Positions 54,471 through 59,095 of a stretch of 64,000 nt of DNA are shown piece after piece. This stretch comes from Chitinophaga pinensis. GTDB taxonomy: Bacteria; Bacteroidota; Bacteroidia; NS11-12g; UBA955. Position 1 is the first letter of the stretch, and every line of letters begins with the position of its first letter. Under the pieces are notes generated by a model that worked only from the letters and a program-made list of their open reading frames with translations, had not been told where the DNA came from and made no database searches. Both the position numbers and the translations under genes were made by a program. Location: positions 7,173-71,172 of the forward strand of contig CAMDUE010000009.1 of assembly GCA_945877575.1 (NCBI GenBank), given 5' to 3'.

Positions 54471-54725
54471 TTAAAACACGAAATTTAACGATGTGTTATA
54501 CAGCGTCGTATTTTGTTTATGGAGTTTAAACTCTGGTCGTTTTACCAATTCAATGGCTTTCTGAAGCGAAGAGTTGTATTTTAAACAATACAGTCTGATT
54601 TCCTTGGTAGCTGCATAAGGGTTGTTATTGTAATATTGGGCATGAGATTTAGGATAGAAATAAAAGCATCCTAAAATAGTCAAGATGCAGAATTTCAATG
54701 AAATAGACAAAGTGTTATTGCTCAT
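54471..54725 (-). CDS. Hypothetical small secreted protein (84 aa); weak call
   Basis: ORF with a signal-peptide-like N-terminus in the 350-bp divergent gap between the E1 and sigma genes. No family support. Confidence 0.25.
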   Translation of the reverse strand: MSNNTLSISLKFCILTILGCFYFYPKSHAQYYNNNPYAATKEIRLYCLKYNSSLQKAIELVKRPEFKLHKQNTTLYNTSLNFVF

Positions 54726-54789
54726 TGCAACAAATTTTACAAAATTTCTGCAACCTTTTTCCTATTGTGCGTCATAAATCTGAAACTAC

Positions 54790-55326
54790 TTGTTAACACA
54801 TGAGCAAATCATAAAGGGCTGTATCAAGAATGATCGAAAAGTACAAAAAGAACTTTTTGAGCGTTTCAGTCCTAAAATGTATGGTTACTGCCTCCGTTAC
54901 TCGGTAAATGCAGCAGATGCTCAAGATGTTTTACAAGAAGGTTTCATTAAGGTCTTTGAAAAAATTAATTCCCTAAAAAACCCAGATCAACTGGAAGGGT
55001 GGATGTCTAGAATCTTTATCAACTTGGCAATCAGTAGGTTTCGAAAAAATAAAATCGCACCTAATATGATCAGCACAGATGAAATTGATGTAGCAGACGA
55101 AGCCCCCTCAGAAGAAATGAACGAGCTCACACCTTCAGAAGTGCTTAGTAAAATGCAAGAACTTCCAGAGTTGTACCGAACGGTTTTGAATTTGTATGCA
55201 ATTGATGGTCATTCACACCGAGAAATATCTCAAATGTTAGACATCACTGAAACCAATTCAAAAAGCATTCTCAGTAGATCCCGGAAAATGTTAAGAGAAT
55301 TAATTTCAAAAAGTCCCAACAAATAA
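54790..55326 (+). CDS. RNA polymerase sigma-70 factor, ECF subfamily
   Basis: Region 2 (DAQDVLQEGFIKVFE) and region 4 (LPELYRTVLNLYAIDGHSHREISQMLDITETNSKSILSRSRKMLRE). Confidence 0.9.
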   Translation: MLTHEQIIKGCIKNDRKVQKELFERFSPKMYGYCLRYSVNAADAQDVLQEGFIKVFEKINSLKNPDQLEGWMSRIFINLAISRFRKNKIAPNMISTDEIDVADEAPSEEMNELTPSEVLSKMQELPELYRTVLNLYAIDGHSHREISQMLDITETNSKSILSRSRKMLRELISKSPNK

Positions 55327-55333
55327 GTACAAG

Positions 55334-56611
55334 ATTCTGGAAAACAAGGTTTTAAATATCGACCAACAACTAGCAGAAAAGTTCAATCACTTTACTGCCG
55401 AAGTTCCTGCGTTCTCCTGGGATGCGGTAGCGTCGAATTTAGATCGTAAAGATTCCAGACGAAAAGCGATAGTTTGGTCATCGGTGGCTTCAGTTGTTCT
55501 CATGGCGGTATCGGGGATGTTGTTTTTTAACATTCCTGCTACCGAGATGAATGAGTCTCAACAAAAGTTTGTAATTACACCAAGTACACGTCCCCAAGAA
55601 ACCCAAAAAGCACAAGCAGAGAGCAGCAATGCTGTTCGAACAGATCGTCATAGCCAAGAAGTTTTGCAGTTGTCACGCACAAACTCCTTAGAAGGAAAAA
55701 TTTCAAAAACTCCTGAAGTCATGCAACCATCCATTGCATTAACTTCAGGAGTTGTTTTGGAAGAGGCATTGGCTCAGAAGTCTTTAATGACAAATGATTT
55801 TAATTTGAATAGCAAGAAATTGACTTCGTTTGAATTAGGTTCATGGATATTGAAATTCACTGATTTTACAGCTCCGACTAAGAATATACGCAAGCAAAAA
55901 GTTTCACCTTGGGCTTTTGAAGTTGGATATGATCAAAATCAAACGCAATTCAATTACCAAGTATCATCTACTCAACAGAAATACGTACACAAGAATTATT
56001 TAAACAGAATGCGCGAAGGGGAATTTTCTCTTTCTGCGCCCCAATTTCATACGGCACTCAGATACGATTTAAATGACCGTTGGCATGCTTCTATTGGATT
56101 GGGATTTGCTCAAACCAAAACTTCTCAGAATTTTAATTTTAGGGATAGTGTTCCGGTCAGTGTTGGACAAGGACAAGAGGCTGATGCTTTTGGAAATTAT
56201 CCGATCTTTGGATATGCAGGTTTGGGACAACAAGTTAATTATGACGGTGTACAAACCATCAATATGGTTTCAATCCCCATGAACATTGGGTACAACTACC
56301 CAGTAAATAGGTTATGGTCTATCACTGCAGAGGGTTCTGCTAGGTATAATTTAATATCTGGAAGTATTGGTAAAACGTTGAATTATCACACTCTAGAGTT
56401 GATGAACGCTGATCAACAGGTTTATAGAAATAGTATTGTTACCGCTAGGGTAGCAGCAGGTGTTGAGCGAAGACTTGGTCTGAAGAAATGGTTTGGCGTT
56501 CGTTTGAATACTCAAGGTAGCATCACTCCGCTGTTCAAACAGGATGCGGCGGTTCAAAATCGCGGTTGGTCTGTTGGATTGTCAGCTTACTATTATTGGA
56601 AATTATTTTAA
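55334..56611 (+). CDS. Anti-sigma factor-like membrane protein with a C-terminal outer-membrane-beta-barrel-like domain; start uncertain
   Basis: Region 55328-55483 is in frame with the GTG-initiated ORF (55484..56611). It encodes a typical Bacteroidetes anti-sigma N-terminus (…LNIDQQLAEKFNHFTAEVPAFSWDAVASNLDRKDSRRKAIVWSS) followed by a TM helix (VASVVLMAVSGMLFF). No ATG, GTG or TTG exists between the upstream in-frame stop (55301-55303) and 55484, so I placed the start at ATT 55334 as a guess. The C-terminus is a beta-barrel-like domain ending YYWKLF. Confidence 0.55.
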   Translation: MLENKVLNIDQQLAEKFNHFTAEVPAFSWDAVASNLDRKDSRRKAIVWSSVASVVLMAVSGMLFFNIPATEMNESQQKFVITPSTRPQETQKAQAESSNAVRTDRHSQEVLQLSRTNSLEGKISKTPEVMQPSIALTSGVVLEEALAQKSLMTNDFNLNSKKLTSFELGSWILKFTDFTAPTKNIRKQKVSPWAFEVGYDQNQTQFNYQVSSTQQKYVHKNYLNRMREGEFSLSAPQFHTALRYDLNDRWHASIGLGFAQTKTSQNFNFRDSVPVSVGQGQEADAFGNYPIFGYAGLGQQVNYDGVQTINMVSIPMNIGYNYPVNRLWSITAEGSARYNLISGSIGKTLNYHTLELMNADQQVYRNSIVTARVAAGVERRLGLKKWFGVRLNTQGSITPLFKQDAAVQNRGWSVGLSAYYYWKLF

Positions 56612-56659
56612 GGCAAAACGGTGACTACATTTTCAAACATATCGCTTAACTTGCAGGGA

Positions 56660-59095
56660 ATGAAGAGACTGATCCTCGGTTTGATCACTGTTTTACTTGC
56701 GAATTTCGTGAGTGCGCAGGTATTGCAGCCGTTGGGTACGGGTTTGCCTGGAAAAGTAGTTGCTTCATACGCAACTGAAAGTGAATTTTTTGCTCTTTAC
56801 GAGGATGTAGAAACAGCACAGCCCAATGATTATACTTTGGCTCGCTGGAACGGAGTTTTTTGGCAGTTATATCCAGGATTGGAAACTCCAGAACCTGTAG
56901 AGGTTACAGAAGGGGTATACAACTTTCATTCAATTGTACTTTATAAAAACACCATTTATGTGGGTGCATACATTGCTAACGCCTCGAAAGACGCAGAGGT
57001 ACCTGTGACGCATTTGTATAAATGGAGCGAGTCTAAACAAAGTTGGGTTCCTGAAATTGGCGTGGTAGATACCCGAAATAACGGTATTGTATTTATGTCG
57101 GTTTTTGATGACAAATTGATGATTGCCGGACAGTTTGAATCTACAGTTGCTGGCAAGAGTATTCAGAATATTGCGGTATTTAATGGTAGTCAGTGGGATT
57201 ACATGGGTACTAGTGACATGGTTCAAGGAGCAAACGGATTGATTCGTGCGTTACAGCCATTGGGCAATAGATTGTACATGGCGGGTAACTTTTCGACCTT
57301 TGCGGGTGGTTCAACTGGAAACATTGCTTATTACACAGCTGCCAATGGTGGTTGGGGTGGAATAGGAAGTCCGTTCACTGGTGAAATTTTGGATATGGCC
57401 ACCTACAATGGCAGTTTGGCTGTTCTAGGTACCCAAACCAATGGTACACAAGAAGTTAGAATATTCAAAGGAACTTGGTCTTCGGCAATAGATTTCACCG
57501 GGTTTTCTACTGCAAACATTAAGAGTATTGCAGGAGCAGGTGACAATTTGGTTTTGGCCGGTGATTTTGTAAAAGACGGCAATGGTTCTTCTTTGTTGGT
57601 GTATGATGGTTCACAACTTTCTTTCACCGGGAATCGGTTAACTGGGCAGTTTAGCCTAGGTCAAAGGGGTAGTGAAGCTTTTGTTTGGGGAGATTTTAAA
57701 GAGTTAAATACAGACCTTAAGTATTTTTCTACCATTGTCTTTGCAACGGGTAATTTATACGGCGATTTATACTTTGATCTTGATGGTGACTGCATCAAAG
57801 ACGGGAACGAAATAGGTATCCCTGAAAGTATTATTAGAGCTATTCGTAAGTCTGATAAGCAGCAGTTTTTTACTGTAACTGATAAAAATGGGCACTTCAC
57901 ATTATCATTGCCTGAAGGTGATTATACTTTAGAACACATGTCTCGAAGACACATGTATAGTATTTGCACCGGAAACTATGCTACACAAGTCAGAAATGGT
58001 AAATATTCATCAGTAAGTTTGGGAGAGTATATGAGTCCAACAACCAAAGATTTGGAAGTGGCTTTAAATCCCATTTATCCTGCAGAATTGAAGGCAGGTG
58101 ATACTGTTCGAGCTTTGTTGGTTATAAAAAATCACGGGGCACAGAAGGTAAATAGTACTATTCATGTGGCCCATGATTTGCCATTGGCCGATTTTGAATC
58201 ATTCCCAGAAGCAGATAACTACGACGGAATTGAAGCAACATACTCATTGTCCAATTTAGAACCCTTTGAAACCCGTTCAATTATATTAAAGTATAAAATT
58301 CCGCATACTGCCACTGCTGAAAGTCGGTTTGGTTTGTATGTGAAAACTGGTTCGTTGTCAGCTCAAAACGATGCCTATCAAAATGATAATTTTGATACTA
58401 CCAAATTGAGTATTGGTAAGCGAGGAAATGGAGCGAATTCAGTTGAAAAAGTGGCTGACATTGGTTCTACAGTTGATTACAGAACCAAAACTTGGCTGTA
58501 CACTGTGAATTTCAGAAATACGGGAAGTTCATTTGTGAAGAAGGCTGTAATGATTGATACATTGTCAACTCAGCTACCCTTGCAAAGGATATTGTTGAAA
58601 TCTTTCTATCCGGTGAAAGCCCATTACAGCATTCAAAAGGGACGTATTTTAGTTGTGACTTTTGATCCTGCTAATTTGAAAACCTACGAGAGCAGTCCAA
58701 CACAATCTACAGGCTGGGTTCAATATCAATTAGATTTTTACGAGCAAATGGGCGTAAAAACTCAGGTTGATAATATTGCATATGTGAATTTTGACTCAAA
58801 ATGGGTAGGGGCATCTGAAAACTGTCAAGTGATGGTTATTGACGGTGCTATGTCTGTTAATAAGAGTCTAAACAAAAATGGTTTGAAGGTATATCCGAAT
58901 CCAGTAAAATCTGCATTGTCTGTTGAATGGTTACAGAGAGAGCTAGGTCAAGAATACCAAATATTGGATATGACCGGCAGAGTGGTATTGGCGGGAACGG
59001 TTGGAGAAGGCATTGTAAACGTAGTAGGATTGAATTCAGGTATTTATTTACTCAATACCCTTTCAAGCAGTACGAGATTCCAAGTATTGAAATAA
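56660..59095 (+). CDS. Large T9SS-sorted multidomain surface protein (N-terminal beta-propeller-like repeats, CnaB/SdrD-B-like domain, DUF11-like repeat, C-terminal sorting domain)
   Basis: Signal peptide MKRLILGLITVLLANFVSAQ (start at Met14 of the ORF-track entry). Repeated …AG(N/Q/D)F… blade motifs, DLDGDCIKDGNE…TVTDKNGHFTLSLPEGDYTLE, and the CTD KVYPNPVKSALSVEW…GIYLLNTLSSSTRFQVLK. Confidence 0.75.
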   Translation: MKRLILGLITVLLANFVSAQVLQPLGTGLPGKVVASYATESEFFALYEDVETAQPNDYTLARWNGVFWQLYPGLETPEPVEVTEGVYNFHSIVLYKNTIYVGAYIANASKDAEVPVTHLYKWSESKQSWVPEIGVVDTRNNGIVFMSVFDDKLMIAGQFESTVAGKSIQNIAVFNGSQWDYMGTSDMVQGANGLIRALQPLGNRLYMAGNFSTFAGGSTGNIAYYTAANGGWGGIGSPFTGEILDMATYNGSLAVLGTQTNGTQEVRIFKGTWSSAIDFTGFSTANIKSIAGAGDNLVLAGDFVKDGNGSSLLVYDGSQLSFTGNRLTGQFSLGQRGSEAFVWGDFKELNTDLKYFSTIVFATGNLYGDLYFDLDGDCIKDGNEIGIPESIIRAIRKSDKQQFFTVTDKNGHFTLSLPEGDYTLEHMSRRHMYSICTGNYATQVRNGKYSSVSLGEYMSPTTKDLEVALNPIYPAELKAGDTVRALLVIKNHGAQKVNSTIHVAHDLPLADFESFPEADNYDGIEATYSLSNLEPFETRSIILKYKIPHTATAESRFGLYVKTGSLSAQNDAYQNDNFDTTKLSIGKRGNGANSVEKVADIGSTVDYRTKTWLYTVNFRNTGSSFVKKAVMIDTLSTQLPLQRILLKSFYPVKAHYSIQKGRILVVTFDPANLKTYESSPTQSTGWVQYQLDFYEQMGVKTQVDNIAYVNFDSKWVGASENCQVMVIDGAMSVNKSLNKNGLKVYPNPVKSALSVEWLQRELGQEYQILDMTGRVVLAGTVGEGIVNVVGLNSGIYLLNTLSSSTRFQVLK

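Follow-up and report, generated by a model that had tools for sequence, protein, structure and literature searches.

The window analysed here, a 64,000-nucleotide stretch of a Bacteroidota assembly (contig CAMDUE010000009.1 of GCA_945877575.1), contains an extracytoplasmic function (ECF) sigma factor gene followed by a gene for a putative membrane-bound anti-sigma factor, whose reading frame lacks a canonical start codon at its conserved N-terminus. The second gene is intact, and comparison with related loci makes it likely that its translation starts at the CTG at 55337–55339, 10 nt after the sigma stop codon. The argument turns on the following features.

54790–55326, + strand: ECF sigma factor gene encoding 178 amino acids (aa), with a TTG start at 54790, a TAA stop at 55324–55326 and Pfam matches
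55301–55303, + strand: in-frame TAA upstream of the anti-sigma gene, after which the frame stays open (from 55304); relatives have this stop at varying positions
55327–55336, + strand: spacer between the sigma stop and the CTG, 10 nt, GTACAAGATT; it includes ATT 55334–55336, an alternative near-cognate start
55337–55339, + strand: proposed initiation codon CTG, aligned with the Met of distant homologues and NTG in all 72 loci compared
55337–56611, + strand: proposed full-length coding sequence of the anti-sigma protein, 424 aa, resembling the dual membrane-spanning anti-sigma (Dma) factors, with a TAA stop at 56609–56611

The first-pass annotation of this DNA described an anti-sigma frame that is closed by the TAA at 55301–55303 and then lacks ATG, GTG or TTG until a GTG at 55484 inside the transmembrane (TM) helix, and this can be read directly from the sequence. 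The open frame from 55304 encodes FQKVPTNKYKILENKVLNIDQQLAEKFNHFTAEVPAFSWDAVASNLDRKDSRRKAIVWSS, also read as ...KILENKVLNIDQQLAEKFNHFTAEVPAFSWDAVASNLDRKDSRRKAIVWSS, and then a hydrophobic helix. Counted from the CTG at 55337, the GTG is residue 50 and falls within the predicted TM helix; in the stretch before it, the only near-cognate codons are ATT 55334, CTG 55337 and ATC 55358. The length of this start-less stretch exceeds chance expectation. Among the window’s 54 open reading frames (ORFs) of 150 aa or more, it has 60 open codons before the first canonical start, whereas the runner-up has 36 and most have fewer than 15, and none of the other genes scanned carries a long start-less N-terminal extension. 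In relatives, the upstream in-frame stop leaves between 1 and 51 open codons before the start position.

The N-terminal 49 codons, which begin with the CTG and end just before GTG 55484, are conserved and evolve under purifying selection. Among seven diverged sequences of the clade to which the window belongs, the ratio of nonsynonymous to synonymous substitution rates (dN/dS) lies between 0.06 and 0.49 in each of the 21 pairwise comparisons, where dS reaches 0.83; the stretch is therefore translated. It is homologous to the N-termini of relatives at 40–47% identity, which hold the full N-terminus (M-E-K-S-x-x-H-I-D-Q-Q-L-K...) with their Met aligned to the window CTG. Residues I8 and D9 are invariant across the family. 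The first-pass annotation had also envisaged orthologues that begin only at the residues encoded from 55484 onward. This is not the case; the N-terminal segment is present in them and is selectively maintained.

The position of the CTG is fixed with respect to these invariant residues. Across 72 loci (63 distinct proteins, many of them closely related), the codon exactly seven before the Ile-Asp pair is ATG in 12, TTG in 29, CTG in 31 and nothing else. The spacing from this NTG to Ile-Asp is seven codons in 72 of 72 loci, with no indel or stop, the CTG lineages included. In a codon alignment, the window CTG falls on the ATG or TTG start in 41 related loci and on a CTG in three other lineages, and no CTG locus has an in-frame canonical start upstream of its CTG. 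The CTG lineages comprise the window clade, L009/L054, the L017 group and the distant L028/L033 group. The last of these lies on the opposite side of the family tree, beside an ATG lineage, and CTG is found in at least two widely separated branches. All CTG lineages keep GAA as the second codon. Immediately before the CTG, the three other lineages have ACA, ACT or ACG, so the ATT at this place in the window is not a general feature.

Codon usage within the genes gives a scale for this conservation. CTG makes up 3.3–4.4% of their internal Leu codons. CTG occurs three times in the window gene. All seven diverged clade members share the first of these, while relatives carry TTA or TTG in place of the other two, which are internal. 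Among alignment columns that are all Leu in the clade, 5 of 18 keep a single codon. The clade is represented at the DNA level by 10 other loci with 65–96% protein identity, drawn from genome bins, Logan assemblies and JGI and ENA metagenomes. The string ACAAG-ATT-CTG-GAA-A is unaltered in all 10, the sequence just upstream differs by indels, and ACAAGATT is invariant in all clade loci. By these alignments, the CTG is homologous to the canonical start codons that orthologues use, and its conservation exceeds the synonymous expectation.

Gene finders limited to ATG, GTG and TTG call a truncated protein, of 375 aa here and of 369–405 aa in relatives. The calls for the four nearest database proteins (96, 83, 74 and 73% identity) give 369 aa each, from a Met matching ATG 55502, and that for a relative at 65% identity gives 405 aa. 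In a second CTG lineage (L017, L018, L046, L062, L064 and L065; proteins P0006, P0009 and P0013), the called start is a TTG 11 codons downstream (LKEKFENF...), which cuts off the conserved Ile-Asp motif. Several of the family’s database entries start with a literal ‘L’.

Read from the CTG, the product is most likely a 424-aa single-pass membrane protein with a cytoplasmic N-terminus of about 42 residues, a TM helix, a disordered linker of about 120 residues and an outer-membrane-type beta-barrel. An AlphaFold2 model, built from an alignment of 52 sequences with residues numbered from the CTG, predicts the following parts.

55337–55462, + strand: cytoplasmic N-terminal region, residues 1–42, with AlphaFold2 helices at residues 8–17 and 28–37 and an RKDSRRK positive patch; putative sigma-binding segment
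55463–55528, + strand: TM helix, residues 43–64 (AlphaFold2); includes GTG 55484 and ATG 55502
55529–55891, + strand: low-complexity linker predicted to be disordered, residues 65–185, with low predicted local distance difference test (pLDDT) scores; poorly conserved and indel-rich in alignments
55907–56608, + strand: C-terminal outer-membrane-type beta-barrel, approximately residues 191–424 (PF13505, AlphaFold2 and Foldseek)

The pLDDT is below 50 for residues 55–185 and is 75–95 in the barrel strands. PF13505 matches the C-terminal half with E = 1.7e-5, below the gathering score, and PF13568 is a precomputed annotation on homologues. Foldseek matches of the model in the PDB are all outer-membrane barrels (OmpA, Ail, OmpX, OpcA and FadL). 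In Pfam and NCBIfam, no anti-sigma model matches the protein, the classical anti-sigma domains zf-HC2, RskA and FecR included; only outer-membrane protein barrel models match. A profile search from the first 68 residues, aimed at named anti-sigma factors such as Dma1 and Reo, matched three unnamed fragments and nothing else. The relatives all come from Bacteroidota metagenome bins, and the named ones are all ‘hypothetical protein’. Given these profile results, the first-pass description of the N-terminus as a ‘textbook’ anti-sigma region is an overstatement. The anti-sigma label itself is plausible from the architecture and the gene order, which are of the Dma type, but it draws no support from any anti-sigma profile.

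How might a ribosome start at this codon? We propose that the initiator fMet-tRNA reads CTG 55337 rather than the adjacent ATT, and that ribosomes terminating at the sigma stop probably help initiation, through translational coupling or re-initiation in the unstructured, A-rich spacer. Coupling of this kind would tie anti-sigma synthesis to sigma synthesis despite the weak codon, and the weak starts of both genes (TTG for sigma, CTG for anti-sigma) may tune the ratio of sigma to anti-sigma. Wherever related loci allowed an upstream sigma ORF to be scored, a co-oriented ECF sigma gene precedes the anti-sigma gene. Relative to the CTG, the spacer region has A at −3, −6 and −12, positions at which A is a positive determinant in Flavobacterium johnsoniae (PMC6847099); Shine-Dalgarno pairing is unused by Bacteroidia ribosomes (PMC6847099). 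RNA folding around the start shows no structure beyond that of shuffled controls (minimum free energy −6 kcal/mol, z = 0.67). A scan for sigma-70 promoters and terminators between the genes gave counts at or below shuffled expectation, with no hint of a separate transcript. Expression of the anti-sigma factor Dma1 is reported to be higher when its sigma factor Das1 is co-expressed (PMC10927553), which fits coupling, although other explanations exist. An unusual anticodon stem in the initiator tRNA could relax discrimination against CUG (PMC11497404); a search aimed at such an initiator tRNA, covering the window and 60 loci, found no tRNA genes.

A bolder extension is that the weak starts are a designed feature of this operon family. 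The anti-sigma factor would then be made only by ribosomes that have just finished the sigma factor, in an obligate termination-reinitiation by Shine-Dalgarno-blind Bacteroidia ribosomes, and the ratio of the two proteins would be sensitive to factors that govern initiation fidelity, such as initiation factor 3 (IF3), as with the GTC start of Streptomyces sigR. This proposal draws on the sigma TTG, which lies 16 nt after a conserved −10-like element, and on the anti-sigma TTG or CTG, which lies within ∼25 nt of the sigma stop. We regard it as possible but, on balance, doubtful.

Several points weigh against a CTG start and against the function assigned to its product. The evidence for the start is purely comparative. 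Close relatives and duplicate contigs account for many of the 72 loci, and the independent lineages are far fewer than that number. The neighbouring ATT 55334 is also near-cognate and is as conserved as the CTG within the clade, and ATC 55358 is a third candidate. In E. coli reporters, CUG, AUU, AUC and AUA each initiate at ∼1–2% of AUG (Hecht et al., bioRxiv 10.1101/063800); CUG is very weak there, and an anti-sigma factor made at 1–2% efficiency seems too scarce unless coupling compensates. Finally, the anti-sigma function is argued from architecture and gene order and, as described above, is matched by no anti-sigma profile.

Among the alternatives, the one that survives best is initiation at ATT 55334, one codon before the CTG, as in E. 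coli infC and pcnB. No clade locus departs from this ATT, the bases at −3, −12 and −13 relative to it are A, and AUU initiation in E. coli, at ∼1–2% of AUG, equals that of CUG (bioRxiv 10.1101/063800). One of the TTG lineages (L013, L016, L022 and L034) likewise has an ATT just before its TTG start. Set against this, the ACA, ACT and ACG found there in the three other CTG lineages are unable to initiate, and the ATG and TTG lineages have CCA, CAA, GAA, CTC, AAA or GTT. The NTG position alone is start-capable everywhere, and it is the CTG to which the Met of distant homologues is aligned. We therefore consider an ATT start unlikely. The first-pass annotation had offered initiation at a rare codon, either ATT 55334 or CTG 55337, as one explanation of the frame; this is supported, and the comparative data favour the CTG.

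Initiation at ATC 55358, the Ile of the Ile-Asp pair, would leave six intervening codons untranslated in the CTG lineages. Every locus has an ATH codon at the Ile position, and the six residues in between are poorly conserved, which favours this explanation. However, the seven-codon spacing between the NTG and Ile-Asp holds in every locus, free of indels and stops; GAA is kept as the second codon in every CTG lineage; and the conservation of a rare CTG would be left unexplained. An ATC start is accordingly very unlikely.

The database annotation may instead be right, with a start at GTG 55484 or ATG 55502 and the upstream similarity an untranslated relic. These are the first canonical starts in the frame, and gene callers choose them in every clade member. 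Under this explanation, the 49 upstream codons should not show the low dN/dS values found at dS up to 0.83, nor remain free of frame disruption in all seven sequences. The protein would lose its conserved N-terminus and the first part of its TM helix, a segment that distant homologues encode from a canonical start. We judge this annotation to be even less probable than the ATC start is.

A programmed +1 frameshift near the sigma stop, which would yield sigma and anti-sigma factor as a single polypeptide, was a further suggestion of the first-pass annotation. In the window, the anti-sigma frame is indeed +1 to the sigma frame and overlaps its last seven codons, and a natural sigma/anti-sigma fusion, Dma3, exists in Bacteroides (PMC10927553). 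The frame relation, however, is not conserved within the clade, which excludes frameshifting: the window, L001, L039 and L040 have 10 or 13 nt between sigma stop and CTG (offset 1), and L002, L003, L037 and L038 have 11 nt (offset 2). Family-wide, offsets of 0, 1 and 2 are all seen, with a stop-to-start gap of −14 to +24 nt. No slippery or stimulatory motif is conserved near the sigma stop, where the sequence varies by indels among close relatives; Rfam has no match in the region; and orthologues have ATG or TTG at the aligned codon. The chance of a programmed fusion is close to nil. The same holds for the last suggestion, a sequencing indel, and equally for an assembly or base-calling error that destroyed a canonical start and for a pseudogene, because ACAAG ATT CTG GAA A is kept in 10 other loci from independent assemblies and samples, spanning several species-level lineages and reaching down to 65% protein identity, and the ORF is intact and under purifying selection (dN/dS <0.5).

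Pfam Sigma70_r2 and Sigma70_r4_2 both match the ORF of the sigma gene, and the top NCBIfam match of the protein is NF058625 (the GFO_1088/PG0214 ECF family) at 101.9 bits, below the cutoff of 130. Its TTG start is kept in 35 of 35 distinct related loci. Upstream of it lies a conserved motif.

54749–54773, + strand: candidate ECF-type promoter-like motif, with TGCAACC at 54749–54755 and CGTC at 54770–54773, upstream of the sigma gene

The order of its elements, a T-run, TGCAACCTTT, ∼13 nt and CGTC, is nearly invariant in the 33 distinct related loci that reach that far upstream, and in those loci the distance from CGTC to the sigma TTG is constant at 16 nt (window region 54749–54792; L001–L068). 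The motif resembles an autoregulated ECF promoter; acting as one, it would leave the sigma gene with a leader of only ∼10 nt. At the other end of the gene, the final ∼5 sigma residues are read in different frames among close relatives (...LISKSPNK* in the window, another tail in L002). The tails of L002, L003, L037 and L038 differ from that of the window (55300–55326) because of an indel in an A-run, and the C-terminal tail of the sigma factor therefore appears to be unconstrained.

Downstream of the anti-sigma gene lies a gene for a protein with a type IX secretion system (T9SS) sorting tail.

56660–59095, + strand: gene for a T9SS-secreted protein with DUF7619 and Por_Secre_tail (Pfam), likely start ATG 56660; synteny in relatives

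The longest ORF here runs from GTG 56621 to 59095. Relatives are called 13 codons shorter, at 811 aa, and these calls match ATG 56660, with the signal-peptide-like MKRLILGLITVLLANFVSAQ after it. On the other side of the operon, an 84-aa ORF divergent from the sigma gene (54471–54725, − strand) corresponds to residues 1–76 and 378–387 of a 387-aa protein (L001:1259–2422, − strand) that has no Pfam match and occupies the same position in L001, L037, L038 and L039. Because the short ORF matches only the two ends of the longer protein, the comparison indicates an in-frame internal deletion of ∼300 codons in the window, with its junction at a repeated LY(N/E)(T/A)S motif.

The new elements here are what appears, from the alignments, to be a well-documented natural CUG start in a family whose members interchange ATG, TTG and CTG at one homologous position, and the systematic truncation of these proteins by gene callers. 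The mechanism is not new: non-canonical starts and Dma-type factors have both already been described. In public protein sets, every clade member is called at least 55 residues short. By analogy with Dma1, the truncated calls would lose the segment that binds sigma, together with the first part of the membrane anchor, and surveys for Dma-type factors in environmental Bacteroidota will therefore miss or misclassify members of this clade. As a comparative example of a bacterial CUG start, in a phylum without Shine-Dalgarno pairing, the locus is also unusually clean. More broadly, the family is a natural test set for the choice of weak starts by Bacteroidia ribosomes and for coupling as the setter of sigma/anti-sigma stoichiometry.

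The closest described system is that of the Dma factors, which are encoded beside ECF21 sigma factors in Bacteroidota (PMC10927553). In the case of Dma1, the first 40 residues are enough for a pull-down of the partner sigma factor, Das1 (PMC10927553). Like Dma genes, the gene described here immediately follows an ECF sigma gene and is found only in Bacteroidota assemblies, and its predicted product likewise combines a cytoplasmic N-terminus of ∼40 aa, one TM helix, a long disordered linker and an OMP_b-brl-type barrel. The likeness rests on architecture and gene order, with Dma1 (BT_4721) and Reo compared by description. There are also differences. The barrel in the model appears larger than the eight strands of Dma1, the neighbouring gene encodes a T9SS cargo protein rather than NigD, and the gene here would start with CTG, whereas the main text of PMC10927553 makes no mention of start codons. 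A resemblance to prfB-type +1 frameshifting is superficial: in the window, the downstream frame lies at +1 and extends back into the upstream gene, but close relatives differ in this frame relation, neither a slippery site nor a stimulator is present, and the locus is not a member of that class.

As with the AUU starts of E. coli infC and pcnB and with near-cognate CUG starts, the proposed codon is one mismatch from the initiator anticodon and would replace AUG, GUG or UUG (bioRxiv 10.1101/063800; translation table 11). Here, by comparison with the E. coli cases, the host is of the Bacteroidia type and lacks Shine-Dalgarno pairing (PMC6847099), the evidence is comparative, and a single start position cycles among ATG, TTG and CTG within the family. 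The Streptomyces sigR–rsrA pair provides a regulatory parallel. The GTC start of sigR is repressed by IF3 and sets the SigR:RsrA stoichiometry (Feeney et al. 2017, PMC5472188). Both systems may be viewed as operons of co-transcribed, closely spaced ECF sigma and anti-sigma genes in which a conserved non-canonical start on one partner belongs to the regulation. In Streptomyces, however, the sigma factor has the weak codon, which keeps the anti-sigma factor in excess, whereas here the anti-sigma gene would have the weakest codon (CTG) and the sigma gene TTG. With the weakest codon on the anti-sigma gene, the regulatory logic would have to differ from that of sigR, for example through a dependence on coupling.

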